Shown: in pieces, positions 7,900 to 48,681 of the stretch
Layout: every line of letters starts with the position of its first letter
Numbering within the stretch: position 1 is the first letter of the stretch
Assembly: GCA_963733345.1 (NCBI GenBank)
Contig: CAVTDX010000076.1
Span: 13,753-77,752, forward strand
Length of the DNA stretch: 64,000 nt
Direction: 5' to 3'
Source: an uncultured delta proteobacterium
Lineage (GTDB): Bacteria > Desulfobacterota > Syntrophorhabdia > Syntrophorhabdales > WCHB1-27
Program-made: the position numbers and the translations under genes
Notes under the pieces: generated by a model
Databases searched by the model: none
Seen by the model: the letters and a program-made list of their open reading frames with translations, nothing else
What the model was told of the DNA's origin: nothing

Positions 7900-8064
7900 C
7901 CCCATATAGTAATGTATGCGAACTTTATTAAAAAAGCAGCATTGGGAAGCCCCGGTTTTGACACAATTCTTAAGGTCATAGCCGCCCTTGGCTTAACTTT
8001 GCGTGCGGAAGCGGCCCATGCGGACGATTCAACGGCCCAGGGAAGCGACGCGGCTAATCGGTAG
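7900..8064 (+). pseudogene. C-terminal remnant of an XRE-type HTH protein
   Basis: FDTILKVIAALGLTLRAE resembles the last helices of XRE/HigA-type proteins. No intact N-terminal HTH is present. Confidence 0.3.
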
Positions 8065-8287
8065 GAAAGATAGCTCCCCCGACTCCTGGCCTATTATCGA
8101 GATGGACACGGTTCATCTTTCCCTTGACATTCTCCCGCCCGTTGAGTTTCAATGATATTGGCCTGAAGTAAGTACGGCTAAACGGATCAAATAGAGTTAA
8201 ACAACCAGATGTCTTCAACTGCCTTTACTTTAGAGAGGGCCCGGAAAGCTTCATCTACGAATTTGAAAGAGCAAGGGAACCGATTGC

Positions 8288-9856: not shown

Positions 9857-10823
9857 CCGTGAAAGCGCGGAAAGCCTCGACGGGACGGGGTCTCGCGCGA
9901 AGAGCCTACTGAAGGGAATCGGGTTTATGCCCATTCTCATCATATTATTAGTTGTCTTTACGGCGATTAATCAGAAGAACTTCGCCACTTTTTCGAATCT
10001 CCAGAACATCTCGCGCCAATTCGCCCTCCTCGCCATTGTCGCCGTAGCGCAGATGTTTCCGATCCTGAGCGCCGGCCTCGATCTCTCTCAAGGCGGAGTC
10101 ATGGGCGCCGTCAGCGTCCTGTCGACCCTCTCCATCATGCAGATCGGCGTCGTCCCGGGGTTCCTGGCAGGGGTGGCGATCGGCGGGGCCTTTGGGCTGG
10201 TCAACGGCGCTCTCATTTCGATATTCGAGATCTCTCCCTTTGTCGTTACCCTCGGGATGATGTTCTTTTCGAGAGGATTGGCGCTGATGATTACAAACGG
10301 TCAGTCGATCTATGGTCTTCCCGAAAGTTTTTCTTATCTGGGAACGGAGTACGTCGGCCCCTTTCCGGTTCCCCTTCTGATCGCGCTTTGCATCTTCTTC
10401 ATCTCCTATATTCTCCTCCGCCGGACGCGATTCGGCCGCTATCTGTATGCGATCGGGGGAAACGAAAAGGCGGCAAGGGTTTCGGGCATCAACATCCGGG
10501 CCGTCAAGACGTTGGCCTATGTTTACTGCGGCCTGTTGACAGGGTTTGCCGCGGTTATCATTTCTTCACGGGTCAACTCCGGCCAGCCGAACCTGGGTCT
10601 TAACGCCTCTCTCGAAGCGATTGCCGCCGTCGTCATCGGCGGCGTGAGTCTCTTTGGAGGAGAAGGAAAGCTCTGGGGCGTCTTTCTTGGGGCAGTCGTC
10701 TTGAGCCTCATCTCGAACAGCCTGAATATCCTTAACGTTAATAGCTATATACAGATGATGGTCATGGCCATGGTCATCATCCTTGCCGTAATAGTCGACC
10801 GCTTTCGCTACACAAAGGATTGA
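9849..10823 (+). CDS. sugar ABC transporter permease (RbsC-like)
   Basis: ATG at 9849 overlaps the ATPase stop (ATGGATGA). Multi-TM protein with an RbsC/AraH-like pattern. The upstream part of ORF 9687.. overlaps the ATPase gene. Confidence 0.85.
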   Translation: MDDRESAESLDGTGSRAKSLLKGIGFMPILIILLVVFTAINQKNFATFSNLQNISRQFALLAIVAVAQMFPILSAGLDLSQGGVMGAVSVLSTLSIMQIGVVPGFLAGVAIGGAFGLVNGALISIFEISPFVVTLGMMFFSRGLALMITNGQSIYGLPESFSYLGTEYVGPFPVPLLIALCIFFISYILLRRTRFGRYLYAIGGNEKAARVSGINIRAVKTLAYVYCGLLTGFAAVIISSRVNSGQPNLGLNASLEAIAAVVIGGVSLFGGEGKLWGVFLGAVVLSLISNSLNILNVNSYIQMMVMAMVIILAVIVDRFRYTKD

Positions 10824-10873
10824 AGGATCAGGGTCCGTGCGAATCGATCCTACCGGGAGAGGAGGAAAAAACG

Positions 10874-11920
10874 GTGTCAATAGGAAAAACGGCAGTCATC
10901 GGCATCATTTCAATTCTGTTTTTCAGCATGGCGTTAGGCTCGGCTCTTGCGCAACCCAAAGGGGTGCAGCCGATCTACCCGGCGCCAGAGCAATGGAAGG
11001 CCGTTAAGGCGAAGAAGAGCTATGTGATCGGAGGATGTGTCCCGATGCTCGGCGCCCCCTACTGGAGAAACCTGTCCTACGGGGTCTTCAACGCGACCGA
11101 AAAAGCCGGGGCAAAGCTTCTCTTCTACGATGCGGGAGGATATCAGTATCTGGAAAAACAGGTGAAGCAGGTCGAAGACCTGATCGAAAGAAAAGTGGAT
11201 GCCATCGTCATCTGTCCGTGCAGCTCGAAAGGCACGGTCGAGGTGCTCGAAAGGGCCATTTCGAAGGGAATCGTCGTGGTCAACACGGTGTCGTGGACTT
11301 ACAGTGAAAAAATCAATTCCGCCGTACTCGATGACGATTACAAGGTCGGACAGATTCAGGCCGAGCGCATCATCAAGAAGTTGAACGGCAAAGGGAAGGG
11401 CGTCATGCTCTGCGGTCCTGCAGGGTCGGACTGGGCCATGAACAGGGTCAAAGGCTTCAAGGAGACGATCGCTAAATATCCCGGCATCCAGGTGCTGTCC
11501 GAGAAGTGGAGCGAACCGACGATCGAGGATGCTCAGAAAGTCATGGACGACCTGCTTCAGACCTTCCCCGACATGCAGTTCTGCTACACGGCAGCCGACG
11601 GAATGTCGATGGGCGCCGCCAATGCCGTCAGGGGGGCTAAGAAACTGGGCGCGGTCATTATCACCACCGCCTCCTTTTCACCCGAAGGCGCCGACTATTT
11701 GAAGAAGGGCTGGACCGACATCGATGTCGGTGAAAGTCCCATCCTGGAAGGCGCCTGGGCAGTAGACGTGGCGGTAAAAGCCCTTAACGGCGAGGCATAC
11801 CCGAAACTCGTTTATGTGCCCAATCCCCCCTTCACAAAAGATAATATGAACGATCCGAAATTCTCTAAGTATATTAAATACCAGTGGGCCCCCCAGGGTT
11901 GGAAGGTCCCTTCTTTCTGA
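10874..11920 (+). CDS. periplasmic sugar-binding protein (RbsB-like)
   Basis: GTG at 10874 follows GGAGG. Signal peptide IISILFFSMALGSALA. Periplasmic binding protein type I pattern. Confidence 0.8.
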   Translation: MSIGKTAVIGIISILFFSMALGSALAQPKGVQPIYPAPEQWKAVKAKKSYVIGGCVPMLGAPYWRNLSYGVFNATEKAGAKLLFYDAGGYQYLEKQVKQVEDLIERKVDAIVICPCSSKGTVEVLERAISKGIVVVNTVSWTYSEKINSAVLDDDYKVGQIQAERIIKKLNGKGKGVMLCGPAGSDWAMNRVKGFKETIAKYPGIQVLSEKWSEPTIEDAQKVMDDLLQTFPDMQFCYTAADGMSMGAANAVRGAKKLGAVIITTASFSPEGADYLKKGWTDIDVGESPILEGAWAVDVAVKALNGEAYPKLVYVPNPPFTKDNMNDPKFSKYIKYQWAPQGWKVPSF

Positions 11921-26491: not shown

Positions 26492-28898
26492 ATGAAGGGG
26501 CCTCCAGATCGAGTTATCAGCTCTGCTTTTTACGGTCGAATCCTTCGTGAGGACAAGGCCAAGAAACAGCTCTTGAGATCTCATCTCCGAAACGTAGCCG
26601 AAAGGACATTGGAGTCTGCAAAGGAAGCGCAGCCTGTCCGTGCGAACGAAGGTCAGGAAACAAAGCGCTGGAAGGAGAACTTCCACAATACAGCACATGC
26701 TGCTGGTTTATTGCACGACTTAGGAAAATACCGCAAAGAATTTCAGGAATACCTTCTTGGTCAAAGAGGGCGCAGCACAGAAACAAACCATGCCGCATAC
26801 GGTTCTGCTGCTGCCGCACACCAGTTTGGCGACGATGCCTCAGCGTTTGCTATTGCCGGACATCATGCAGGGCTTCATGACCTTGCGATGTTGGACGATC
26901 TGGTCAACGGCCCAAAGTACAGCGCCTATGAGAAGTATGGTCAATTGCTTACACTGGCCCAGGGTGAAAGAGAATTGGGCGCTTTTCCGGAATCCAATCC
27001 TGCCACCATGGGCAGTTCTGATGACAGCGAAAAGCGTCGCCATGAATTCATGATCCGAATGCTGTTTTCCATCGTCGTTGATTCCGATCGTTTAGATGCT
27101 GAGCGCTGGGAAATGGAGCAGAAAGCAGGAAAGCCCTGGCAGCGACAGATCAGCAAACTTGATGCTGCAGGCCTTCTGCACCGGATTCAGGCAGTAAGGG
27201 AGCAAAAGAAACGTGAACGTCCCGAGGATGATCTCAACCATCTGCGCAACACAATCTTCGATGCCGGTATGGATAAAGGCGAGCGACTACCTCAGGGTTT
27301 CTTTAGCCTCACCGTGCCCACAGGCGGGGGAAAAACCCTGTCCTCCATGGCCTTTGCCCTTGCACACGCCAAAAAACATGATCTCAGGCGGGTGATCGTG
27401 GTAATCCCCTACCTATCCATCATAGAGCAGAATGCCAAAGAATACAGAGATGCTCTTGGCGACAGGATTGTATTGGAGCATCATTCTGCCGTTGAAGTCC
27501 TGTCAGACGCCCGAAGGCCTGATAGCGGGGAACCTAATGAACCAACGAATATCTCCGATCTAGAGAAAGCGATGGAAAACTGGGATATGCCGGTAATTGT
27601 TACTACGAGCGTCCAGTTTATCGAAACGCTCTTTGCCGCGTCTCCGGGACAGGCTCGCAAGCTGCATAGCATAGCGCAGAGCGTCGTGGTATTCGACGAA
27701 GTGCAGACATTGCCGACCCACCTTCTTGAACCGACACTGAATGTGTTGCGTGAATTGAGGGATCACTGGGGTGTCAGCATCCTTTTCTGTTCGGCTACAC
27801 AGCCTGCATTCAAGAAATCAGCTACTCTAAGAAATGGATTTGAACCAAATGAGATGGTTCCAATAGTTTCAGAACCGGAACGGGTATTCAAAACACTCCG
27901 CCGAGTGGACTACCGTGTAGAACCCAAGGAGAACCCTGTCGATTGGCGAACCCTTGCTGAAAGAATGACCGCTCATCCGCAAGCCCTGTCCGTTCTTAAC
28001 GTCCGTCGTCAGGCTTTTGGGCTTTGGGAGGCCCTGCATGCGCGCCTGCGGGAGAGAGTCTACGGTGAAGAAGTGCGGGAGGCACTGTTTCATCTATCCT
28101 CGGCCATGTGCCCGGCCCATCGTTTGGATTTACTCGGACTCTCGAAGAACCCACCATGCAATAATATTAAGACAAGGCTCAAGAGCGGCAAGCCATGCTG
28201 GGTCGCCTCCACGCAATTGGTCGAAGCAGGGGTTGATATCGACTTTCCAATTGTTTTCAGGGCCATGGGTCCTCTTGATTCCCTTGTACAGGCGGCCGGA
28301 AGATGCAATCGAGAGGGATTACTGCGCGATAAGCAAGGAAACTTCTGCCGTGGGCAGGTCGTTATCTTCTACCCCTCCGATGCTAGAGCTGCCGCCTGGA
28401 ATTTACAGTATAGGGACAAGCATTACCCCTGCCTATCTTGAACCGGAAAAACTCGCCGAAGATCCAGCCATTTTTGCCCGATACTTCCACGAACTCTACC
28501 AGATTACGCCAACGGATTTTACCCGGATCGGGCAACATACTATTCAGGAATATCGTGCTGAGTTCAGGTTTCGCAAGGTGGCTGAACACGCGCGAGTCAT
28601 AAAGGATGCGACCATTTCTGTGATCGTGCCGTACGGCAAGGGCAAGGAAATGATCGGTGATGTCCGCCGCGAAAAAGACTTCGATTTCAAAACCCTGCGC
28701 CAGTTGCAGCGATATATGGTAAGTATCCGCAATCAGGGACCTTATTCTGATTTTGCGAAACTGAAAGCGATTGGAGCCATAACGCCGCTCCTGCACGACC
28801 GTCTGGAAATCCCTGTGCTCGCTGATTGGTGTTACAAAACCGACCCACCCCTTGGGGTGGTAATCGAGAATAGACCAATGGAGGACTTTTTCCAATGA
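26492..28898 (+). CDS. cas3: Cas3 HD nuclease/helicase, frameshifted as assembled near 28385-28400
   Basis: HD domain (LLHDLGKY, GHHAGLHD, VDSDRLDAE) and helicase motifs (TVPTGGGKT, VVFDEVQ, SATQP). The C-terminal domain continues in another frame (ORF 28017..28898) and ends with ATGA coupling to cas5. Confidence 0.85.
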
Positions 28899-29788
28899 AC
28901 CCAACAAATCCTGTTACTGTCCGCGTATGGGGGGATTATGCCTGCTTCACCAGACCGGAAATGAAAGTGGAACGGGTGAGCTACCCCATCTGTACCCCGT
29001 CGGCCGCCCGTGGAATACTCGAAGCTATCTACTGGGAGCCGCAGATGTACTATGTCATCGACACCATCTCTGTCGTAAAGAAAGGGCGATGGTTCAATTT
29101 TCGTCGCAATGAGGTGACCTCGGTGATCAGTTTGAAAGAAGCCCAGTCATGGATGGCGGGAAAAATTCCTATCAAGTATATCTCTGCCGGTGGAGGCGCT
29201 CCGGATGCGGCTCAGAGAAATATGCTTGCGTTGGCAGATGTCGAATACCTTATCACGGCAGAGGTGCGGACAACTGGACTCCATGACGCCAACCGCTTCA
29301 ACCTACAAAAATATCTCAAAGAGATAGAAAGGCGTGCGTCAAAAGGAAAATGCTATCACCGTCCAGCCTTCGGCTGCCGGGAATTCGCTGCCGACTTCGA
29401 ATGGGTCCCGGATGTGAAGGAAGCCTTGGAGCAAAGGGCCGCTGAGGTGCATGCCGACAAAGAGAAAAAGGATTGGAGAAAAACGTGGGCCGAAGAGGAC
29501 CTCGGGCTGATGCTCTATGACGTCTTCGATGTGAGCCAGCGTGGGGAAGGCTTCCGATGGCTCACAGGCGAGGAATTGGAGGCTGCTTTGTCTGGTCAAA
29601 CGTTGGCCGCAACGAAAGCCCCAAAGGGCAAGAAGAAAACTACTCCGGACAACCAACTGAAGTATTTTGAGGGAACCCCGATTGTTCCGCATGCCGCCTT
29701 CTTCCACGCCAGAATCAAAGACTCGCAGATGGATTGCCACCCGGAACGAGTCAAAATAATACCGGAAAGAAGAAAGGAGGTGATTTGA
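28895..29788 (+). CDS. cas5c: Cas5c/Cas5d (type I-C)
   Basis: VRVWGDYACFTRPEMKVERVSYPICTPSAARGILEAIYWEP is a typical Cas5d N-terminus. 297 aa, longer than usual. Confidence 0.9.
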   Translation: MNPTNPVTVRVWGDYACFTRPEMKVERVSYPICTPSAARGILEAIYWEPQMYYVIDTISVVKKGRWFNFRRNEVTSVISLKEAQSWMAGKIPIKYISAGGGAPDAAQRNMLALADVEYLITAEVRTTGLHDANRFNLQKYLKEIERRASKGKCYHRPAFGCREFAADFEWVPDVKEALEQRAAEVHADKEKKDWRKTWAEEDLGLMLYDVFDVSQRGEGFRWLTGEELEAALSGQTLAATKAPKGKKKTTPDNQLKYFEGTPIVPHAAFFHARIKDSQMDCHPERVKIIPERRKEVI

Positions 29789-31878
29789 TGTTTCTTCAAG
29801 CCCTGTATGAATATGCACAGAAGAACCGATTACTTGATAACCTTCCTTTGCAGACAAGAGTTGTACACGCCTTAATCGCGATTAATTACGATGGAAAGCT
29901 AAGAGTCGATCACTTAGTCCCGTTGAGCCATACTGACGAAAAAGGGAAGGAACGCCCAGGCCAAGAAAGACTGATGCCAAGATTCCCCGGCGAGAACAAT
30001 GGTGGTAAAGCTTATTTTCTTGCGGAAAACTGCACAGCCGTCTTGGGTATTGAGCACTCTGAAGACACAAAGAAAGGCATTTCTCCCGGCGATCCAATCT
30101 TTTGCGATCCAAGGAGGGGTGGTAATTCTACAAAGGCCTTTCTTCATTTCTGGAATCAGATTGAGCAAGCCTACGCCAAAACCCAGGATGAGAGGTTGGG
30201 CGCATTGCTATCATTTCGTTCAAACTACTTAAGCGAGCGTGGTGGCAAAATAATGGCGAATCTACCCTTTATCGAAGTTCAGATGGGCAAAAGAGACAAC
30301 TTGGAATTAGTGGCAAGAACTAATGAGAGAGATTTCCTACCTTTGAAGGCGGCAACTCTGGGATTCAGCGTTGAGGGCGAACCGCTGATCACGGAAAACA
30401 ATAGCGACCCCCTCCGTGCGTACTGGTTTGACCGGTATTTGGAAGAGGTATTTGACGATGACAATATCGAGGCTCCAGTCTTCGTTTCAAATACCGACAG
30501 CATATGCCTCATAACCGGAGAGGCTGGTTTGCCCATTGCTCGTTCCCATAAGCCCAAAATTCTTGGCGTGCCAAAACTGTCATCAGGCGGCTATGTTGTG
30601 TCGTTTGCCAAGGAAGCCCCTGCATTTTCATCTTATGGTAACGAAATGGGACAAAATGCACCCGTATCTGAACGGGCAGCCGCATCTTATGCACTGGCCA
30701 TTAATGAATTCCTAAGGCAAGAAGATAATCACATCAATATTGGGCCTTTGTCGGTCTGTTTTTGGTCAAAGGTAAATATCGAGGTACCGGGACAGTTCAA
30801 ATCGATGTTGAGCAGGGCGTACCCGGAACAAGTCAGAGACTTTCTTCTTGCGCCTTTTGCGGGTATTAGCGGTAGAGAGCCATTGCGTAGAGATCGACTT
30901 TACACTGCCGCTCTTGCAGGAAATGCCGGAAGAGTAGTAGTCTGCCACTGGTTGGATCAGACTCTGAATGAAGCTATTGTCAATTTCAACCACTGGTGGG
31001 GTGATCTCCAGATTGTAAGTGTCTACAGTGCTTCCACTGTAGAAGGTCGTGAAAGACGGGCATCGCCTCTCGCAATTCAAAATCTGGCTCGTGCGACTCT
31101 TCGACAGTCAAAGAAGCAGAAGACCGACAAGTTGTTGCCCACCCGCATTATTCAAATATACCGGGCTGCCCTTGAAGGGACCTCGCTCCCGATCATAATG
31201 CTCAAGTCAATTCTTGATGAGTTTTACAGCGCCCTTGTGAAGAACGATGAGCAAAACCAGACGTACCCTTACAGCCAGTCAAGGTTTGCCCTTATCAAAT
31301 TAATACTTATTCGAAACAAAAAGGAGGAGTTTATGCCAGAGTACCAGTTAGCCGACACAACCGACGCATCATACAATCTTGGTTGTTTGCTCGCAGTGCT
31401 GGAAGCCCTACAGAAACGATCGGTGCGAGCAGGGAAGGCAGGCCCCGAACAAGGCGCTGATAAACCAAATGCCGGAATTATCGAAAGGTACTACGCCCAG
31501 GCATCAACGGCCCCAGCGCTTGTCTTCCCGTATCTTTTGTCCCTCTCGCGACACCACTTTTCAAAGCTCTCGAAGGGAAGTGAGAAGGACAAGAGAGCTG
31601 CTAAGGCCATTGAGGAGACCGTAATCGACATTTGCAAAAAGTTCAAAGCTACCCCCGAAGAACCAGGTGAGGCTCCCAAATTTCCTCGCCTACTGGATCT
31701 GGAACGGCAAGGCCGCTTTGCGTTGGGCTTTTACCAACAAAAAGCATACGACATCGAACAAGTCAGAAAATTCAGGGCGTCCAAAGGGATGCAGGGTCTT
31801 GATATTGCCGATATCGATGACAGCGAGGAAGCAGAGACTGAATCTGCTGAATACAAAACAAACCGCAAAGGAGAATAA
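29788..31878 (+). CDS. cas8c: Cas8c large subunit (type I-C)
   Basis: ATG at 29788 follows AAAGGAGG and overlaps the cas5 stop (TGATG). 696 aa. Lies between cas5 and cas7. Confidence 0.8.
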   Translation: MFLQALYEYAQKNRLLDNLPLQTRVVHALIAINYDGKLRVDHLVPLSHTDEKGKERPGQERLMPRFPGENNGGKAYFLAENCTAVLGIEHSEDTKKGISPGDPIFCDPRRGGNSTKAFLHFWNQIEQAYAKTQDERLGALLSFRSNYLSERGGKIMANLPFIEVQMGKRDNLELVARTNERDFLPLKAATLGFSVEGEPLITENNSDPLRAYWFDRYLEEVFDDDNIEAPVFVSNTDSICLITGEAGLPIARSHKPKILGVPKLSSGGYVVSFAKEAPAFSSYGNEMGQNAPVSERAAASYALAINEFLRQEDNHINIGPLSVCFWSKVNIEVPGQFKSMLSRAYPEQVRDFLLAPFAGISGREPLRRDRLYTAALAGNAGRVVVCHWLDQTLNEAIVNFNHWWGDLQIVSVYSASTVEGRERRASPLAIQNLARATLRQSKKQKTDKLLPTRIIQIYRAALEGTSLPIIMLKSILDEFYSALVKNDEQNQTYPYSQSRFALIKLILIRNKKEEFMPEYQLADTTDASYNLGCLLAVLEALQKRSVRAGKAGPEQGADKPNAGIIERYYAQASTAPALVFPYLLSLSRHHFSKLSKGSEKDKRAAKAIEETVIDICKKFKATPEEPGEAPKFPRLLDLERQGRFALGFYQQKAYDIEQVRKFRASKGMQGLDIADIDDSEEAETESAEYKTNRKGE
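31333..31878 (+). CDS. candidate internally translated Cas11c small subunit
   Basis: In-frame ATG at 31333 lies 5 nt after AAGGAGG (31321-31327), inside the cas8c 3' region. Confidence 0.45.
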   Translation: MPEYQLADTTDASYNLGCLLAVLEALQKRSVRAGKAGPEQGADKPNAGIIERYYAQASTAPALVFPYLLSLSRHHFSKLSKGSEKDKRAAKAIEETVIDICKKFKATPEEPGEAPKFPRLLDLERQGRFALGFYQQKAYDIEQVRKFRASKGMQGLDIADIDDSEEAETESAEYKTNRKGE

Positions 31879-31881
31879 GCC

Positions 31882-32850
31882 ATGGAAACATCACTCACAA
31901 ATCGTCATGACGTTCTGATCCTTTTCGATGTAACGAATGGTAATCCTAACGGTGATCCTGATGCCGGCAATATGCCGCGTATCGACCCTACGAGCAACAA
32001 GGGCTTGGTTTCGGATGTGTGCATGAAGAGAAAGATTCGTAACTACGTATCTGACTTCAAGAAGGAAGTCCGGTACGACATTCTGGTGCGGCAGGGGAAC
32101 ATAATGAATAACGAAATCACAACCGCCATAAAAGATGCGACTGAGACGCTCCCCAACAAGGAGAAGGCAACAGACAAAGAAAAAGCCGAGGCCGCCATGA
32201 AATGGCTTTGTAATAAATTCTACGACGTAAGGGCGTTTGGCGGCGTTCTTTCAATCGGCAAAGATGTGCTCCAGGGTTCCGCGTTCGGACAAGTACGTGG
32301 TCCTATTCAGTTCACATTTGCCAGGTCCTTAGACCCTATTACTCCGCTGGACATCTCGATTACCCGCTGCGCTGTCACAAGGCCAGAGGACGAAAAGAAG
32401 GAGCGTACCATGGGCAACAAACACATCATTCCATACGCCCTCTACGCAGCCAAGGTCTACATTTCACCTGTATTTGCCGAGAGGACGGGTTTTAGCAATG
32501 ACGATCTCACGCTTTTCTTCGATGCGCTCGGCAATATGTTTACGCACGATCAATCGGCGGCCAGGGCTGAAATGACCGTTCGCGGAATCTACGACTTCGA
32601 ACATGTGGGCACTCAGAGCCCGAATAACGGCGATCAGAACAAACGCGAGGCCCGCCTTGGATGCTATCACGCCCACAAGCTGTTTGAAGGAATCAAGGTT
32701 GAACTAAAACCGGGCAAGACGTATCCGGAATCGTTTGACGATTACAAGGACAACATTACGTGCGCGTGGACTGAAGACAGCCTTCCGAAAGGAGTTGTGC
32801 TGCACATTAGACATGAACAGCCTATCGCTTCGATCAGATCTCGGTCATGA
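31882..32850 (+). CDS. cas7c: Cas7c/Csd2 (type I-C)
   Basis: ILFDVTNGNPNGDPDAGNMPRIDP..GLVSDVCMKRKIRNY is a typical Csd2 sequence. Confidence 0.9.
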   Translation: METSLTNRHDVLILFDVTNGNPNGDPDAGNMPRIDPTSNKGLVSDVCMKRKIRNYVSDFKKEVRYDILVRQGNIMNNEITTAIKDATETLPNKEKATDKEKAEAAMKWLCNKFYDVRAFGGVLSIGKDVLQGSAFGQVRGPIQFTFARSLDPITPLDISITRCAVTRPEDEKKERTMGNKHIIPYALYAAKVYISPVFAERTGFSNDDLTLFFDALGNMFTHDQSAARAEMTVRGIYDFEHVGTQSPNNGDQNKREARLGCYHAHKLFEGIKVELKPGKTYPESFDDYKDNITCAWTEDSLPKGVVLHIRHEQPIASIRSRS

Positions 32851-33566
32851 TCGAGACGCGCAGCCGGGAAGAGTTTTCCCAAGACGATCTGATACCTATC
32901 TCGTCTGTTGCCGATCTGGTCTTCTGTGAACGAAGGGCTGCTCTTCATTTTGTTGAAGGTGCATGGGAAGAAAATCAGTTTACTGCCGAAGGTCATCTCC
33001 TTCATGACAAAACCGACGAGGTCGATTGTGAGATGCGAAAAGAGGTTCGTATTGTCCGGGGGCTGCGGCTCCGTTCCTTGAAGCTGGGCCTTTCGGGTGT
33101 GGCCGACGTCGTAGAATTCCGTCGTCTCGGTGTTTCACCGTCTACGGCCAGTTCTGACAGCGAGCCTACACATGGGGTTGCTTTACCGGGAGTCAAAGGG
33201 TTCTGGAGGCCGTTTCCGGTGGAGTATAAGCGAGGGAAGCTGAAACATGAGAAAAGCTACGAGATCCAGATTTGTGCCCAAGCATTATGCCTGGAAGAGA
33301 TGCTAAATGCACGAATCGTAGACGGTGCGATCTTCTATGGGAAATCGATGCGGAGACACGGTGTGACCTTCACGGATACCGTCCGGAAGGAAACGGAAGG
33401 CGCCGCAAGACGCATGCACGCGCTTATTGCTTCAGCAACGACACCAGAGCCGATCTACGGCAAGAAATGTAACAGTTGTTCACTTTTTGAGGAATGCTTG
33501 CCGAAAACCATGGGCAAAAAGTCTTCGGTGAAGCGCTACCTGGAACGAATGGTGAGCTCGCCATGA
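32847..33566 (+). CDS. cas4: Cas4 RecB-like nuclease
   Basis: N-terminal Cys plus C-terminal CNSCSLFEEC Fe-S cluster motif. ATGA coupling to cas7 and cas1. Confidence 0.9.
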   Translation: MIETRSREEFSQDDLIPISSVADLVFCERRAALHFVEGAWEENQFTAEGHLLHDKTDEVDCEMRKEVRIVRGLRLRSLKLGLSGVADVVEFRRLGVSPSTASSDSEPTHGVALPGVKGFWRPFPVEYKRGKLKHEKSYEIQICAQALCLEEMLNARIVDGAIFYGKSMRRHGVTFTDTVRKETEGAARRMHALIASATTPEPIYGKKCNSCSLFEECLPKTMGKKSSVKRYLERMVSSP

Positions 33567-34594
33567 AAAAACTCCTTAACACGCTCTATGTGACCACCCA
33601 GGGGGCGTACCTCGCGAAAGAAGGCGAGACGGTGGCCGTGAAGGTCGATGGCGACGTGCGTTTGCGCATACCCGTGCACACCATCTCCGGCATCGTCTGC
33701 TTCGGCAACGTAGGGTGCAGCCCGTATCTTATGGGTTTCTGCGCAGAAAACCAGGTGGCCGTGAGCTTCCTGAGCGAGCACGGCCGATTTATGGCAAGGG
33801 TGCAGGGTCCCGTCTCAGGCAACGTCCTTCTGAGAAGGGAGCAATACAGGCGCGCCGACGACCTCCGGCAATCGGCGGAGGTCGCAAAAAGCGTCCTGAC
33901 CGGGAAAATCGCTAATTGCCGGGCTGTGCTGCTCAGGGCGGCCAGGGACCACGCAAGCAAGATCGACGAGCACCAGGTCCGCCACGCTGCCGCGCGCCTG
34001 ACCAGGCAGGTCGAGCTTCTTGCCCGGGAATACCCTCTTGATGCGTTGCGCGGCATAGAGGGAGATTCGGCCCACATCTATTTCGATGTGTTCGATCATC
34101 TGATCGTTGCCCAAAAAGAGGCGTTCCGGTTCAATGAGCGCAACAGGCGCCCGCCCCTCGATAACGTAAATTGCCTGCTCTCCTTCATTTATACCCTTGT
34201 GATGCACGACGTAAGATCGGCCCTGGAGACAGTCGGGCTCGATCCAGCGGTAGGTTTCCTGCACAGGGACAGACCCGGCCGGCCCGGGCTCGCCCTCGAT
34301 CTCATGGAAGAATTCAGACCCTTGGTAGCAGACCGCCTTGCTCTCTCGCTCATCAATCTGCAGCAGGTGCAGGACAAGGGGTTCAAAAAGATGGATTCGG
34401 GGGCAGTCACTATGACCGACGAAACGCGAAAGACCGTGCTCGTGGCGTATCAGGAGCGAAAGCAGGAAGAGATTCTGCATCCGTTTCTTGGGGAAAAAGT
34501 GGCGATCGGCATGCTGTTTCACGTCCAGGCGCTCCTCTTCGCGCGCTATCTGCGTGGAGACCTTGACGGTTATCCGCCCTTCATCTCGAAATAG
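33563..34594 (+). CDS. cas1: Cas1 integrase
   Basis: MKKLLNTLYVTTQGAYLAKEGETV..; GIEGDSAHIYF; FLHRDRPGRPGLALDLMEEFRP. Confidence 0.95.
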   Translation: MKKLLNTLYVTTQGAYLAKEGETVAVKVDGDVRLRIPVHTISGIVCFGNVGCSPYLMGFCAENQVAVSFLSEHGRFMARVQGPVSGNVLLRREQYRRADDLRQSAEVAKSVLTGKIANCRAVLLRAARDHASKIDEHQVRHAAARLTRQVELLAREYPLDALRGIEGDSAHIYFDVFDHLIVAQKEAFRFNERNRRPPLDNVNCLLSFIYTLVMHDVRSALETVGLDPAVGFLHRDRPGRPGLALDLMEEFRPLVADRLALSLINLQQVQDKGFKKMDSGAVTMTDETRKTVLVAYQERKQEEILHPFLGEKVAIGMLFHVQALLFARYLRGDLDGYPPFISK

Positions 34595-34606
34595 GGAGGC
34601 GCCCCG

Positions 34607-34897
34607 ATGATGGTTCTGGTGAGCTACGACGTAGCTACGAAAGACCCGGGCGGCTCGCGGCGCCTCAATCGGGTGGCTAAGGCGTGTGAAGACTTCGGCC
34701 AGAGGGTCCAGTATTCCGTTTTTGAATGCATCATGGACCCGGCGCAATGGACTTTCCTGAAGCATCGCCTCATCGATGAGATCGATCACGACAAGGACAG
34801 CCTGCGTTTCTACTATCTGGGGTCGAACTGGAGACGGCGCGTCGAGCACGTGGGCGCCAAAGCGGGCGTTGACCAGGAAGGGCCGCTGATCGCATGA
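34607..34897 (+). CDS. cas2: Cas2
   Basis: [32 protein letters not shown]. Confidence 0.9.
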
Positions 34898-35077: not shown

Positions 35078-38129
<3,052 letters not shown>

Positions 38130-38227
38130 TCTTTGCGATCTCCTTTAGGGCCTGTCAAGGACCAAGTTAATTCCCCACCCCCGGGGCCACGGTAATTCCC
38201 CACTTTGCACCGCAAGAGAGTGGTTTG

Positions 38228-38973
38228 TTATTGCTTCGTCTTCGGACTCAGGTTCTTCCTATAGGACTCTCCTTCATCGATCATAATGTGATGGGCATGA
38301 TGGCTCAGGCGATCGAGCGCCGAGTTGGCCATGACCGGGTCGGGGAACAGGGCCACCCAGTCCTGAGGCGGCCGGTTGCTGGTGATGATTGTGGATGATC
38401 TCAAATGGCGCTCCGCCACCAGCTCGTAGACGTCTTCCGCCTGGATGGGCGTCAGCGCCGTGAGCCGAAGTCGTCGATGATCAGCAGATCGGGGTTAAGG
38501 TACTTCCTGATCTGCCTTTCCCACGACTGATCGGCCCTCGACGCAAAGAGATGCCTGAGCATCTTGACCGCCTTCACAAAAAGCACGCCGTATCCCCTCC
38601 TGCAGGCCTCGTGACCCAGCGCCTGGGCGAGGTGGGTCTTTCCCACCCCGGCCGGCCCATAGATGAGCACATGCTCTTTTTTCTCTATAAAAAGACACGC
38701 GGCGAGATCGGTCACGGCCCCTCGTTTGATCTTCGGGTTGAAGGCGAAGTCGAACCCTTCCAGCGTCTTCTCTTCTTCAAAGGATGCTTTCTGTATCCTG
38801 ACGGCGAGCTTCTTCGTCTCCCTTCTTTCGATCTCGTCCTGCATGACAAGAGTAAGGAAGGCGAGATGGGAGAGTTCGTCTTTCTCCGCCTGGGCGAGCC
38901 TGAGCTCCAGGCTTTCTCCAAATCCTCCGAGCTTGAGCTTTCTGAGATCGGCCATGAGGTGATGATCAATCAT
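38228..38973 (-). CDS. istB: IstB ATP-binding helper, frameshifted as assembled near 38455-38468
   Basis: Walker A GPAGVGKTHLA and LLIIDDFG in ORF 38452..38973. The continuation LTPIQAEDVYELVAERHLRSSTIITSNRPP runs in another frame down to 38228. Confidence 0.85.
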
Positions 38974-40549
38974 GGGACGCCTCCTTCCCGAAGTATGAGG
39001 GCTTTCGGAGGAACCGCTTTCCTAGATCGGACAGGGGCGCTGAATGCGTCGTCGTCTGCTCATCGGAGAGGTCTTTTTCCAGCATGGCCTTGATGCTCCT
39101 GTACCGGGTCGCGCCGAAGCTCAATGCTCTTTCGGCAACTTCTTCTATCTTGCCCGAGTGCTTCTCGGCAAGGCGGAGGATCGCCTGGGCCTTCCGGAGG
39201 TTCCTCATGGCGTTTTCTTTAAGGATGGCGTAAATGAGCGCTTCCGTATGGGGACCGAACTCGGCTGCCTTCTTCCTGCACCACGTGGGCGTCGCCATGA
39301 GGAAGGCGAGCTTCTCCGGCGGATAGTCCGTCTGGTCCGTCGCCCATCGTCCGGGCGCATGGGACCGCGGGTGAAGTTTGATCCTTTCCTGGTCGAGGAA
39401 GATCTCCGTCGTCTTCTTGGTTCCCTTCGCCCACACCTTCTTGCCGATGTACCGGGTCGGCAGCGAGTAGTAGGATTTGTCGAAGACGATGTGATGGTCG
39501 GGATGGACGGTGCACTCTTTCCACAGCGGACGCTCGAAAGGGGTTTCCGGCAGCGGCATAAGATGCGGCTTCTCTTCCATGAGGAATGTCGGATAAGGTT
39601 TCTTCTTGGTTGTTCCGTGGACCTCCATGCCGATCTCTTCCTTGCACCAATGGAGAGCTCGAACGTTTGCCTCCTTAATGTCTTTGAACGTCCTGCCTGC
39701 AAGGAGGTGTTTTTTCACCACGGCGACGGCGCGCTCCACCTTGCCTTTGTGTTCGGCCATTCTCACCTTCGCGGGGTCGGCGACGAAGCCGCAATGGCGT
39801 TCCATGTCGGCATAGGCCCGGTTGATCGTGGGGTCGTAAATGTCGGGCTTCAAAACGCCGGACTTGAGGTTGTCCAGGATTATTCTTTTCGGGACGCCCC
39901 CGAAGAAGGCGAAGGCCCGCTCGTGACAATCGAGCCACATGTCCGTTTCCTGGCGGAAGACGAAGCGGACGAACTTGTGGCGGCTCGAGGAAAGGGTCAT
40001 GATGAAGGCCCATGTCCTGCGCTTCCTGTCTGCCTCGGGATCGTACATGAGCCCCGCATAGCCGAAGTCGACCTGGGCTTCCAGTCCCGGAGGAGTCTCT
40101 ATGCGGACCGTCGCCTTAGTTTTGCCGAAGGAGAACTCCGAGCGGAGATAACGCTTGATCGTGCTGTAGCCGACTTGAATGCCGTGAGTTTCTCTAAGGA
40201 GCCGCCACACCTGCTTGGCGGTCATGTTCTCGTCCTTGAGCCATTTCTCGATCTCGTCCCTGTGCCGGGCCGCCAGATCGAGGGCCGGCGTCTCGAAGGC
40301 CGCCTGCACGTTCAGAGGAGCATTGAGTCTGCAAACGGACTCTTGCTCGTCCGGAAGCGGCCCTCCCTGGGCAATCCCCAAGGATCGCGCCATGGCGACA
40401 TACTTCCGCACGGTCTTTCTGTCGAGACCTAAAGACTGGCTAATATGCTGGATCTTCATTCCCTTATGCCACTGGTACACTGTCTCCGCTACCTCATTCA
40501 TCGGTATATCCCTCCTCGCCATGATCCCTCCGTTCCAGGTCGTTGCCAT
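38966..40549 (-). CDS. istA: IstA transposase (IS21 family)
   Basis: N-terminal HTH (ISQSLGLDRKTVRKYV) and a DDE integrase core. The start may be the ATG at 40522. Confidence 0.9.
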   Translation of the reverse strand: MATTWNGGIMARRDIPMNEVAETVYQWHKGMKIQHISQSLGLDRKTVRKYVAMARSLGIAQGGPLPDEQESVCRLNAPLNVQAAFETPALDLAARHRDEIEKWLKDENMTAKQVWRLLRETHGIQVGYSTIKRYLRSEFSFGKTKATVRIETPPGLEAQVDFGYAGLMYDPEADRKRRTWAFIMTLSSSRHKFVRFVFRQETDMWLDCHERAFAFFGGVPKRIILDNLKSGVLKPDIYDPTINRAYADMERHCGFVADPAKVRMAEHKGKVERAVAVVKKHLLAGRTFKDIKEANVRALHWCKEEIGMEVHGTTKKKPYPTFLMEEKPHLMPLPETPFERPLWKECTVHPDHHIVFDKSYYSLPTRYIGKKVWAKGTKKTTEIFLDQERIKLHPRSHAPGRWATDQTDYPPEKLAFLMATPTWCRKKAAEFGPHTEALIYAILKENAMRNLRKAQAILRLAEKHSGKIEEVAERALSFGATRYRSIKAMLEKDLSDEQTTTHSAPLSDLGKRFLRKPSYFGKEASHD

Positions 40550-40702
40550 AGGAATGGCAGAATCATGTCCTTTCCGTCCACCCTTTCGAGGCGGCGCAAA
40601 GTGGGGAATTACCTTGGCCCTGCTACTGGGGAATTACCTTGGCCCCGATGGCCTTATAGTGGGGATATACCATGGCCCTCGACGGGCCCTGACGACTTCT
40701 CG

Positions 40703-43077
<2,375 letters not shown>

Positions 43078-43616
43078 AACACCCAGGGGGACGACCATAA
43101 CTATATAACTAACTCTTGAAAAACTCCCACTGTCATGATAAAATCCCGCCATGGCCCGGCACTCCCGCCTTGACGCGGCAGGCATCCTTCATCACGTTAT
43201 TGTTCGGGGCATCGAACGGAGGAGAATATTTTCAGACGACTCCGACCGGGATGATTTTCTTAATTGCTGTGGAGGGATCTTTCCTGAAACGAAAACCGCC
43301 TGTTATGCCTTCGCGCTCTTGCCTAATCACGCGCACTTGCTCCTGCGCACGGGCGCCGCGCCTCTTTCGACTGTCATGTCCCGTTTGCTGACCGGCTATG
43401 CGGTCTATTTCAATAGGCGATGCCGAAGGCACGGGCAGCTATTTCAGAACCGCTATAAGTCCATTGTGTGTCAGGAAGATGCATACCTCAAGGAGCTCGT
43501 TCGGTACATTCATCTTAATCCTCTTCGAGCCGGGCTTGTGAAGGACTTGGAGGCATTGGCAATTTTCCCCTATAGCGGCCATGCGACGCTCATGGGGAAG
43601 ACAAGGTACGCCTGGG
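43078..43616 (+). repeat. first unit of a 539-bp tandem duplication (promoter plus 5' 466 nt of the Y1 gene)
   Basis: Collinear with 43617-44155 with 4 mismatches by eye. Confidence 0.9.
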
Positions 43617-43639
43617 AACACCCAGGGGGACGACCATAA
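43151..43639 (+). pseudogene. truncated copy of the Y1/HUH transposase-like gene
   Basis: Identical N-terminal ~155 aa, then reads into the duplicated upstream sequence (..AWEHPGGRP stop). Confidence 0.85.
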
Positions 43640-43689
43640 CTATATAACTAACTCTTGAAAAACTCCCACTGTCATGATAAAATCCCGCC

Positions 43690-44691
43690 ATGGCCCGGCA
43701 CTCCCGCCTTGACGCGGCAGGCATCCTTCATCACGTTATTGTTCGGGGCATCGAACGGAGGAGAATATTTTCAGACGACTCCGACCGGGATGATTTTCTT
43801 AATCGCTGTGGAGGGATCTTTCCTGAAACGAAAACCGCCTGTTATGCCTTCGCGCTCTTGCCTAATCACGCGCACTTGCTCCTGCGCACGGGCGCCGCGC
43901 CTCTTTCGACTGTCATGTCCCGTTTGCTGACCGGCTATGCGGTCTATTTCAATAGGCGATGCCGAAGGCACGGGCAGCTATTTCAGAACCGCTATAAGTC
44001 CATTGTGTGTCAGGAAGATGCATACCTCAAGGAGCTCGTTCGGTACATTCATCTTAATCCTCTTCGAGCCGGGCTCGTGAAGGACTTGGAGGCATTGGCA
44101 ATTTTCCCCTATAGCGGCCATGCGATGCTCATGGGGAAGACAAGATACGCCTGGCAAGACGACGAGTCAATCCTCGCCTTGTTCGCCGCCAAGGACGCGA
44201 GGGCGGCTTATCTCGATTTCGTAAGAGCTGGTCTTGCACAAGGGCGAAGGCCGGATCTGTCCGGCGGCGGGCTGATGAGAACTCATGGAGGATGGACCGA
44301 GATCAGCAAATCGCCTCAACGTCTGAAAGGCGACGTGCGCGTGCTGGGCGACAGTCAATTCGTCCTTGATGTTCTTTCCCAGGCGCAGCAGGAACTCGAG
44401 CATCGTTACAGACTCAAGATCATGGGCGTTGATTTTCCCTTTGTTGAGCGCAGGGTGCTTGAACTCTGCGGTCTGGCGCCGGACGATCTCTACAGCCGGG
44501 GCAGGCAGAAGCAACGCGCGGCAGCTAAGGGGCTCCTCTGCTTTTGGGCGGTCCGTGAACTCGGCATGTCCCAGACCGAGCTTTCAGGGCGCTTGAGGAT
44601 GACCCAGCCCGGGATAGCGTCTGCCGTTGCACGAGGCCAAAGACTTGCGAAGGAAAAGGGGTATCTGCTTTTCGCAGCCGCTCCACGATAG
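43690..44691 (+). CDS. IS200-like/REP-associated Y1 (HUH) transposase-family protein with a DnaA domain-IV-like C-terminal HTH
   Basis: HUH motif LPNHAHLLL; catalytic-Tyr region LVRYIHLNPLRAGLV. The C-terminal RQKQRAAAKGLLCFWAVRELGMSQTELSGRL resembles Bac_DnaA_C. Confidence 0.7.
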   Translation: MARHSRLDAAGILHHVIVRGIERRRIFSDDSDRDDFLNRCGGIFPETKTACYAFALLPNHAHLLLRTGAAPLSTVMSRLLTGYAVYFNRRCRRHGQLFQNRYKSIVCQEDAYLKELVRYIHLNPLRAGLVKDLEALAIFPYSGHAMLMGKTRYAWQDDESILALFAAKDARAAYLDFVRAGLAQGRRPDLSGGGLMRTHGGWTEISKSPQRLKGDVRVLGDSQFVLDVLSQAQQELEHRYRLKIMGVDFPFVERRVLELCGLAPDDLYSRGRQKQRAAAKGLLCFWAVRELGMSQTELSGRLRMTQPGIASAVARGQRLAKEKGYLLFAAAPR

Positions 44692-44944
44692 AATGTCTCG
44701 GCCCGGCCCTCTGCCGCCCGGCATAAAATCGGCGACATATCCAATTAGGCATTACCCATTTAATTAGGTAATGGATTAGGCAACATGGCGCGTCGGTTGC
44801 GCTATCGGGCCGCTTCTGCGAGAAGGGAAGCTGAGAGTCCTGGCAACTGGCCGTGGGGCCGCTTGGCAAAAAACATGAAAATATCCCATAAACGCGATAA
44901 TAACCAATTTCTTGAGAAGGAGCTGCGCTCATGGCGGGGATGAC

Positions 44945-45262
44945 ATGGACTCTCACATAGCGGTTTTCAGAGGTAAGGAAATCAGGAAGACGATCCATAA
45001 TGATGACTGGTGGTTCGCAATTGTCGATGTGTGGGCCGTTTTGACTGAAAGCGCAGATGCGGGAGCATACTGGAGAAAGCTGAAACAAAGACTCAAGGAA
45101 GAAGGGAGCGAAGTCGTGACATTTTGTCACGGGTTGAAACTGCTTGCTCCCGACGGCAAGCTGAGAGAAACGGATTGCGCCAACACCGAAGGCATTTTTC
45201 GCATCATCCAGTCCATCCCTTCTCCCAAAGCCGAGCTTTTCAAGCGTTGGCTGGCGAAGGTC
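44945..45262 (+). pseudogene. Bro-N domain (prophage antirepressor-like) gene truncated at its 3' end
   Basis: IRKTIHNDDWWFAIVDVWAVL..EGIFRIIQSIPSPKAELFKRWLAKV fits Bro-N. Homology ends at about 45262, where CRISPR-repeat-like sequence begins. Confidence 0.55.
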
Positions 45263-45330
45263 GGAACCGGGAGGCGATCTGGGAGGCAGAGGCGGTCAAT
45301 AGTGTTCCCCGCAGGTGCGGGGATGAACCG
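45263..45330 (+). CRISPR. type I-E-like CRISPR remnant: 7-nt repeat tail, 32-nt spacer, one full 29-nt repeat
   Basis: GTGTTCCCCGCAGGTGCGGGGATGAACCG at 45302-45330. GGAACCG ends at 45269, exactly 32 nt before it. Confidence 0.6.
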
Positions 45331-45365
45331 CCCCTTTCGACTTTAGACTTTTAACTATGCCTATC

Positions 45366-45400
45366 GTCACCCAGCGCGGGGGCCTGGGAACTCATTAAAC
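45366..45400 (+). repeat. degenerate CRISPR-like palindromic repeat
   Basis: GTCACCCAGCGCGGGGGCCTGGGAACTCATTAAAC shares GTC, GCGCGGGGGC, TGG and AAAC with the I-C repeat. Lies 35 nt after the I-E repeat. Confidence 0.45.
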
Positions 45401-45439
45401 ATTAAACATTCACCATTGAGCATTGCGTCGCCTCCCCCT

Positions 45440-45778
45440 TCATTCCGTTCTTGCATGTTTGCTGCAGACGGTTGTCCAGGGAATTGTCTCAAGGCGTTCC
45501 ACCTCGATTTCTTTTCCACAGACCTCACAGACGCCGAATTCCCCGAGTTGGATCCTCGCCAGCGCCCTGCTTATGGCTTGGATCTCTTTCTGCTCTGTTT
45601 CGTCCAGTGTTGCCAGAACATCGGCGATAGCCTCCTTCTGCGCTGTGTCTTCAGCTTCGATATCGTGCTCTGACAAGATAAGCCGTGCTTCATCGTTAAG
45701 CCTATGGGCATCGAAGACTTCGTCGCGTTTTTTGAGCAATTGCTCACGAATTGTCCCCATCTGTTCCGCTCTGCTCAT
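45440..45778 (-). CDS. DksA/TraR-family C4-type zinc-finger protein
   Basis: ATG at 45778 follows AAGGAGA. Coiled-coil N-terminus, then CEVCGKEIEVERLETIPWTTVCSKH. Confidence 0.75.
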   Translation of the reverse strand: MSRAEQMGTIREQLLKKRDEVFDAHRLNDEARLILSEHDIEAEDTAQKEAIADVLATLDETEQKEIQAISRALARIQLGEFGVCEVCGKEIEVERLETIPWTTVCSKHARTE

Positions 45779-45954
45779 AAGATCTCTCCTTCGGCTCGAG
45801 CGCCTCATGGGTAAGTATCATCACCGGCTTCCACTATTGCAACAATTCCGGCTATTCCGAGCGGCAGCTTATAATCCCGCATGGGACGAGGGTGCGGCTG
45901 GGTTTCAAACCTCCCGGATGGCGCTGGCTGTGCACAGGCAGCTTGCCCCCTACC

Positions 45955-45986
45955 GTCGCCCCCCGCGCGCGGGCGTGGATTGTAGT
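45955..45986 (+). CRISPR. degenerate I-C repeat, probable original terminal repeat of the array
   Basis: GTCGCCCCCCGCGCGCGGGCGTGGATTGTAGT matches the consensus at 28 of 32 positions; the mismatches cluster at the 3' end. Confidence 0.7.
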
Positions 45987-48557: not shown

Positions 48558-48681
48558 CTTTTCCCCTCCCTTTCACTTTCGACTTTTAGCTTTTAACTCG
48601 TCTCTCTCCCCCCACCCCCCGCATACCCGTGCCATTCCGTGCACTTCCGTAAACCCCGGGCCGTACGCCGACTCTCTTTTG

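Follow-up and report, generated by a model that had tools for sequence, protein, structure and literature searches.

Introduction

Decay remnants of CRISPR-cas loci are a known kind of object, and the residual array of one or two I-F repeats in Escherichia coli strains without I-F cas genes is an example. The type I-E unit described here belongs to this kind. It was found in a window of 64,000 nucleotides of an uncultured delta proteobacterium (contig CAVTDX010000076.1, positions 13,753 to 77,752), and all coordinates below are those of the window. As in other decayed loci, few repeat units have outlived the cas genes, the site corresponds to a complete system in relatives, and a CRISPR system of a different type is active in the same genome. 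However, the unit differs from them in three features: only one full repeat is left, the relic has a clean deletion edge inside a non-cas passenger gene, Bro-N/PDC-S13, instead of an edge made by array-array recombination, and it is located within the trailer region of an array of another type.

It is important to compare the unit with the I-E arrays of Syntrophales-like Desulfobacterota, represented here by uncultured delta proteobacterium MFD01476.bin.2.71 (CAVYJH010000015, G006 below) and by the genome G036. The repeat family, the 29-nt length of the repeat, the 32-nt length of the spacer, the 3' handle ATGAACCG and the strand relation to Bro-N are the same. However, these arrays have 57-73 repeats, an AT-rich leader and a full cas operon, while the window has one unit with neither leader nor operon.

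A lone CRISPR repeat beside one sequence of spacer length is also the arrangement described for RNA anti-CRISPRs (Racrs), for the solitary repeat units and mini-arrays that mobile elements carry (Camara-Wilpert et al. 2023, PMC10651486), and for the crRNA-like regulators in cas loci (bioRxiv 10.1101/2023.03.03.530964). Such units are found in phages and plasmids or beside the cas genes that they regulate, have promoters of their own, and act on cognate Cas proteins of the cell, none of which was found for the unit described here.

Results

The complete type I-E repeat of the window is located at positions 45302-45330 of the + strand and consists of 29 nt, GTGTTCCCCGCAGGTGCGGGGATGAACCG. It is a genuine type I-E repeat. 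Its length of about 29 nt, the GC-rich stem of 6-7 bp, the 4-nt loop and the 8-nt 3' handle ending in AACCG are those of the type, and the fold of the RNA is a hairpin with a stem of 7 bp and a loop of 4 nt (-14.4 kcal/mol). Nearly identical sequences are found beside I-E cas genes in arrays with spacers of about 32 nt: G006, from the same genus, has 73 copies of a variant with two mismatches, and G036, from the same order, has 57 copies of a variant with one mismatch. Both arrays have a period of 61 nt and are located directly 3' of cas3-cse1-cse2-cas7e-cas5e-cas6e-(BroN)-cas1e-cas2e. The form NNGTTCCCC-loop-GGGGATGAACCG is common to 13 fetched cas-adjacent arrays, with variation mostly in the loop and as compensatory changes in the stem; the repeat end GGGGATGAACCG occurs in 13 of 13 related I-E arrays, and the 3' handle ATGAACCG of the window repeat is identical in all of them. 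In soil and peat metagenome contigs, very many arrays carry the 29-mer repeat. In the window and in the 3.32-Mb assembly of its own genome, the 29-mer is present as a single copy at up to 7 mismatches or an edit distance of 6. In the former array it was most likely the terminal repeat.

The original prediction had recognized a palindromic repeat of I-E length at these positions, and both the coordinates and the identity are right, in view of the arrays in G006 and G036 and of the hairpin fold. Absence of the repeat from related genomes had been named as an outcome that would speak against the prediction; the outcome is the opposite, with full arrays in the relatives. The use of a repeat-family classifier had a negative result, in that no CRISPR-DR family of Rfam matched the 29-mer, either in 5.7 kb at E<=1 or in 61 nt at E<=10. 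This miss weighs little and is taken as a limit of the library, in which the DR set is not exhaustive. In the Propionibacterium freudenreichii phages NC_041890-NC_041893, at approximately 19.7-20.7 kb, a stretch of 27 nt has 92.6% identity with the I-E repeat at E = 0.2, and either chance or a solitary repeat unit of the phages could account for it.

The window reads GGTCGG, AACCG, 32 nt and the full repeat, in the exact register of an array. The 32 nt (positions 45270-45301, + strand) are the final I-E spacer of the lost array and are equal in length to the spacers of the related arrays with their 61-nt period. The fragment AACCG (positions 45265-45269, + strand) is the remnant of the 3' end of the second-to-last repeat, and the alignment with the Bro-N gene of G006 ends at the preceding GGTCGG. 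A spacer between a clipped and a full repeat had been predicted, with the seven nucleotides GGAACCG matching the repeat end 32 nt upstream. The spacer, the clipped and the full repeat and the spacing of 32 nt are confirmed, but the match of seven nucleotides is not: the last 7 nt of the repeat are TGAACCG, and at most 6 nt agree. In addition, both G's of GGAACCG are also found in a glycine codon of Bro-N, and the unambiguous part of the remnant of 4-6 nt is only the 4-5 nt (A)ACCG. The G at position 45264 is common to the glycine codon and to the repeat, giving a microhomology of 1 nt at the junction. Taken alone, the match of (A)ACCG has a coincidence level of approximately 1/256 to 1/1000, and it is convincing only together with the exact break of homology and the spacing of 32 nt.

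The repeat is preceded by 37 GC-rich nucleotides, which differ from the conserved AT-rich leaders of the related arrays and for this reason are assigned as spacer and not as leader. The reading of positions 45265-45301 as a leader in front of a first repeat was rejected, because the related leaders are AT-rich, conserved and without any resemblance to this sequence. An ectopic spacer integration with target-site duplication was also rejected: the 29 nt located 5' of the spacer match the repeat by eye in 13 positions of 29, six of which are the terminal GAACCG. The 32-mer has no other site in its own genome at up to 7 mismatches, no exact match across the metagenome, viral and genome contigs and no BLAST match in phages or plasmids, and it is absent among the spacers of the fetched arrays. 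The comparison with viral, plasmid and host sequences that accompanied the prediction of a mobile or hijacking unit leaves this reading without a target.

The gene joined to the spacer is the 5' fragment of a Bro-N/DinD-like gene (PDC-S13, a phage-defence candidate in PADLOC) of about 107 codons at positions 44945-45264 of the + strand, cut at the conserved motif ...KRWLAKVG. The Pfam Bro-N profile is matched at positions 1-92 of 96 (2.8e-12), with the match ending at about 45259, and the PADLOC PDC-S13 profile at positions 5-114 of 286 (4.5e-50). Compared with the two-domain PDC-S13 proteins of about 280 aa in PADLOC, the stump corresponds to the N-terminal part with the Bro-N domain and is without the whole C-terminal domain. 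The amino acid identity with residues 19-127 of G006 BroN is 55%. The nucleotide alignment with the G006 gene, of approximately 84% identity over the last 85 nt, ends after GGTCGG at position 45264. Eight intact metagenome homologues with 84-90% amino acid identity all continue as AKVG|YERVQEIEDPEL (TAYGAR...), and the relatives of the stump extend YERVQEIEDPEL... for about 170 further residues, the part that is missing in the window. A peat-metagenome contig of 951 nt is 93% identical to positions 44936-45264 and then reads CTATGAGCGTGTGCAGGAG; its intact gene goes on with CTATGAGCGTGTGCAGGAGATTGAAGACCC past the breakpoint. A truncated Bro-N gene with homology ending at the clipped repeat, as originally proposed, is thus found. 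In the window, the open reading frame of the stump reads on through the spacer and the repeat to a stop codon at 45344-45346.

The window copy is a pseudogene fragment. It keeps the open frame and the ATG, and its differences from the relatives are mostly in third codon positions. Four changes, E->D, S->A, C->W and P->L (KAEPFKRW), are found only in the window, at residues invariant in the eight relatives; judged from these substitutions, the truncation may be fairly recent and have been followed by relaxed constraint. A sharp left breakpoint of the stump at position 44936 was considered and withdrawn, because the protein similarity (GGDDMDSH vs GRGDNLESH) runs a few codons upstream of it.

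In G006, the gene order of the operon is cas3-cse1-cse2-cas7-cas5-cas6e-BroN-cas1-cas2-array, and BroN, of 295 aa, is located between cas6e and cas1 (PDC-S13 match 2.2e-112). A set of 160 loci encoding relatives of the G006 Bro-N protein was fetched, and 44 of them are inside cas operons. The order cas6e-BroN-cas1e-cas2e followed by an I-E array was found in approximately 16-17 loci besides G006, from several phyla, with the array about 2.1 kb after the start of Bro-N and with cas1-cas2, about 1.3 kb, between them. In the remaining cas-embedded loci, the gene is found in I-C systems, in the orders cas4-X-cas1 and cas7-X-cas4 or directly before cas3, the last of these also in G024. The occurrence of the first order in G006 and about 17 other loci indicates that Bro-N, 1.3 kb of cas1-cas2 and an I-E array on one strand are a standard layout. 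Both ends of this layout are present on one strand of the window and the middle is missing. The PDC-S13 gene (positions 10333-11193 of locus L011 in G006; loci L031-L190) is very conserved, with 66-90% amino acid identity across many phyla. In the literature searched, there is no mention of a Bro-N/PDC-S13 gene within type I cas operons.

The machinery of a type I-E system is not found with the unit. The tblastn search of its own genome with all nine I-E proteins of G006 found only the Bro-N stump, and the Pfam families Cas_CT1975, CRISPR_assoc (Cas6e) and Cse1 (PF09344, PF08798, PF09481) have no match in this genome, with a positive result in a control genome. In the genome, which is 86.8% complete, there is no other I-E repeat and no Cas6e, Cas7e, Cse1, Cas1e or Cas2e. 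The lack of I-E cas genes, predicted for the window, extends to the rest of the genome, where the search for such genes and arrays returned nothing besides the single 29-mer. At this completeness of the assembly, the absence is strong but not absolute, and an I-E system on a missing contig is possible.

Upstream of the unit, nothing resembles the conserved leaders of related arrays, and a weak test of the + strand found no sigma-70-like promoter. Among 2.9 million viral contigs, none contains the 29-mer; its matches in phages are at chance level, and those in plasmids are ordinary I-E arrays. Compared with a functional array, the unit has only one full repeat, and the upstream repeat, reduced to 4-6 nt, is without a stem-loop. 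The neighbours are Y1 transposase genes, a gene stump and a dksA/traR gene, with no phage or plasmid context, and the 32-mer has no complementary site in the genome within 7 mismatches such as a crRNA-like regulator would use. The remnant should do nothing: the genome has neither Cas6e for cutting the hairpin nor Cascade for loading the RNA, the upstream repeat has no stem-loop from which the 5' end of a crRNA could be made, and neither leader nor promoter was found. The I-E unit is almost certainly inert debris, and presumably it is not transcribed; the region was found in no RNA run. Of the two explanations originally offered, debris of a second CRISPR system is the one borne out, as the last spacer-repeat unit of an I-E array joined to a Bro-N stump. 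The other, a mobile solitary unit or mini-array acting as an RNA anti-CRISPR or hijacking host Cas proteins, is unsupported: no I-E Cas proteins, second full repeat, leader, promoter-like site, viral copy or spacer target were found in its favour, and the unit is fused to the gene stump independently of the frame, as in a deletion scar.

The resident system of the window is a complete one of type I-C. Its operon, cas3, cas5, cas8c, cas7, cas4, cas1 and cas2, spans positions 26492-34897 of the + strand (Pfam Cas3, Cas5d, Csd1, Cas7, Cas4, Cas1), with cas2 assigned by ORF size (34607-34897, + strand). The array at positions 35078-43077 of the + strand has 81 perfect 32-nt repeats at 35078-43025, is split by an IS at approximately 38130-40702 and ends in a repeat (43061-43077) of which the first 17 nt alone remain. 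The genes of two Y1 (IS200-like) transposases in tandem (43078-44691, + strand; Pfam Y1_Tnp in both ORFs) cut the array in the middle of this repeat, and they are now located between the array and the Bro-N stump.

Immediately 3' of the I-E repeat, at positions 45331-45356 of the + strand, begins a dispersed genomic motif, CCCTTTCGACTTT..TTTTAACT. Other copies are located at positions 48558-48600 of the window and in contigs C34, C63, C64, C104, C113 and C32 of the same assembly (G000). The 35 nt between the I-E repeat and the following I-C-like site open with this motif, and they are not an ordinary spacer for this reason. In some copies the motif CCCTTTCGACTTT(T)..TTTTAACT reaches approximately 100 nt (...CGTCTCTCCCCCC...CCGTGCCATTCCGTGCAC), and both copies in the window start exactly where the homology of the preceding feature ends.

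A degenerate I-C-like repeat had been predicted 35 nt downstream of the I-E repeat. At this place, positions 45366-45400 of the + strand, a decayed I-C repeat is possible but doubtful. The edit distance between this site and the I-C repeat is 9 of 32; elsewhere in the genome, 26 sites outside the array are as close, and the expected number within 100 nt, calculated post hoc, is approximately 0.002. A real one is located further downstream, at positions 45955-45986 of the + strand, where a solitary I-C repeat is 28/32 identical (edit distance 4), with its mismatches at the 3' end as in a terminal repeat; it is the only such I-C site outside the array in the genome. The I-C remains downstream of the relic could be a second decayed I-C array or the displaced trailer of the main array. 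Another solitary I-C-like repeat, at an edit distance of 7 from the array repeat, is found in contig C82 of the same assembly at approximately 43135-43166.

Between the two I-C-like sites, and outside of the relic, is a gene of the dksA/traR zinc-finger type (positions 45440-45808, - strand; Pfam zf-dskA_traR 7.8e-9). The segment 45434-45871 recurs with 84-89% nucleotide identity in at least nine genomes of at least three genera, frequently with several copies in one genome and located at the ends of contigs; the gene and its short flanks resemble a small mobile or repeatedly captured cassette. This segment was rejected as a mobile carrier of the I-C repeats, since its other copies have no adjacent I-C repeat.

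The history of the locus can be compared in two species of the same genus. G005 has an I-C system with the same repeat as the window, and its array is followed directly by a 3' half-repeat and, 57 nt later, by a Bro-N pseudogene that is truncated and frameshifted and is 91% identical in DNA to the gene of G006. The right flank, DsrC and cytochrome bd oxidase, is collinear between the I-C locus of G005 and the I-E locus of G006. This means that the same island holds I-E in one species and I-C with a Bro-N stump in another. Except for a piece of 76 nt, the flanks of the window locus show no collinearity with those of G005 or G006, and orthology of the trailer flank with the I-C arrays of G003 or G005 was rejected beyond a 76-nt piece. 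The window Bro-N allele belongs to a subclade different from those of G005 and G006 and has only 55% protein identity with them, so that the lost I-E locus was not simply that of G006. The I-E locus of the window may have arrived by transfer already decayed. Near the old ends of the I-C arrays of G005 (L027) and G003 (L029), a 3' half-repeat, GGGGGCGTGGATTGAAAC, follows a shortened spacer; these half-repeats are the footprint of small internal deletions.

Discussion

The best explanation of the unit, with a probability of about 0.85, is that it is a scar left by deletion in a type I-E CRISPR-cas locus that is otherwise lost. In the ancestor, or in the donor of this DNA, one strand would have carried ...cas6e - Bro-N/PDC-S13 - cas1 - cas2 - leader - I-E array, the arrangement that a genome of the same genus still has. 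We infer a single illegitimate deletion at a 1-nt microhomology, which would have joined approximately codon 127 of Bro-N to the last 4-6 nt of the second-to-last repeat and removed the C-terminal domain of Bro-N, cas1, cas2, the leader and the array except for its oldest spacer and the terminal repeat. The genes from cas3 to cas6e would have been lost or replaced separately, and the system working at the locus now would be the type I-C system. A simple deletion requires that Bro-N and the repeat share a strand, and in the window they do. In an undeleted allele, the complete Bro-N gene would be followed by cas1e, cas2e and an array whose end reads ...GGAGGCGATCTGGGAGGCAGAGGCGGTCAATA + repeat + CCCCTTTCGACTTT. 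The I-C-like repeats downstream (45955 and, doubtfully, 45366) stand against the scar in that they are unexplained by a simple layout of I-C followed by I-E in tandem.

Alternatively, an already broken foreign piece of an I-E locus, consisting of the stump and the last unit, could have been imported with other DNA, for example alongside the Y1 element, into the old end of the I-C array. In support of an import, the relic is placed between the truncated I-C repeat at 43061-43077 and the I-C-like repeats at 45366 and 45955, directly 3' of the two Y1 transposase genes; the Bro-N allele is of a different subclade from those of G005 and G006 in the same genus, and the flanks are not collinear with theirs save for 76 nt. 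However, the island with the I-E locus of G006 carries a Bro-N pseudogene in G005, which favours local decay, no donor sequence with the 32-mer spacer was found among the metagenome, viral and genome contigs, and no such passenger DNA is known in Y1/IS200-type elements. We consider the import unlikely, and the imported fragment would still be inert debris, in that case of the system of the donor. A junction made by the assembly, with the Bro-N gene of one population joined to the array end of another, is less likely still and has very little chance of being correct. The genome is metagenome-assembled with 5.4% contamination, the I-E repeat is a word of very high copy number in soil and peat metagenomes, and the junction 45264/45265 rests on one assembly, without an independent read set or contig; the junction words are in no run searched. 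In the best run, the soil run X1, positions 45271-45421 are identical and positions 44700-45003 free of mismatches, with 45004-45270 uncovered. However, the partners have only 1 nt in common at the junction, and a graph-based misjoin would need far more; the one long word that they share, the 29-nt repeat, is covered with both of its flanks by the identical independent contig of 151 nt (45271-45421) from this run, and the orientation and register match the natural operon exactly.

The unit might also have been kept for a function, as a decoy RNA for Cas6e or Cascade of type I-E, as a crRNA-like regulator, or as a 3' hairpin on the mRNA of a Bro-N-only protein of 133 aa. The repeat is perfectly intact with a stable hairpin, the Bro-N fragment has an open frame with an ATG and has changed mostly in third codon positions, and the same habitats are very rich in I-E arrays with the 29-mer repeat. 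Both phages and cas loci have documented examples of solitary repeats in such roles (PMC10651486; bioRxiv 10.1101/2023.03.03.530964). However, the genome has no I-E Cas proteins to bind the repeat, the unit is outside of any phage or plasmid context and the 29-mer is missing from viral contigs, the weak test of the + strand upstream found no promoter-like site, and the spacer has not even a partial target in the genome. The changes of the stump at invariant residues also argue against a function, and no second genome was found with the stump, the 32-mer and the repeat as a unit. A retained function is very improbable, and it is just as hard to accept that an I-E hairpin at the 3' end of an open Bro-N frame is retained as an expressed decoy or regulatory RNA. 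If this were true, such an RNA could soak up the Cas6e or Cascade of incoming I-E elements or of an unassembled I-E system, and the retained hairpin unit would be a chromosomal counterpart of the RNA anti-CRISPRs of phages.

Interpreted as a deletion scar, the relic alone matters little: it is a molecular fossil of an I-E system that was once present in the lineage or in a donor. A sister species still keeps such a system, and type I-C is now the sole working system at the window locus. Because relatives still have the lost architecture, cas6e - Bro-N/PDC-S13 - cas1 - cas2 - array, the scar can be interpreted down to the single base, and in this lies its value as a worked example. The relic is one more case of PDC-S13 at the boundary of interference and adaptation genes in type I operons, and this association is the more interesting question.

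Some observations in other loci concern the same boundary. Between G006 and G036 (L011/L013), Cas1e is 85% and Cas2e 79% identical, and the Cascade proteins only 24-41%. Between the I-C systems of the window and G005 (L027/L028), Cas1 and Cas2 have approximately 86% amino acid identity and the other Cas proteins approximately 50-57%. Judging by these identities, the adaptation and interference modules appear to have different histories, with the PDC-S13 gene exactly at the boundary of the modules. In Deltaproteobacteria bacterium RBG_16_49_23 (L033, L145), an intact PDC-S13 gene at positions 8001-9045 is followed by a cas1e piece of about 50 codons (84% identical). There is no I-E array at this locus, and an array of another repeat type adjoins it; it is another decayed I-E adaptation module beside a PDC-S13 gene.
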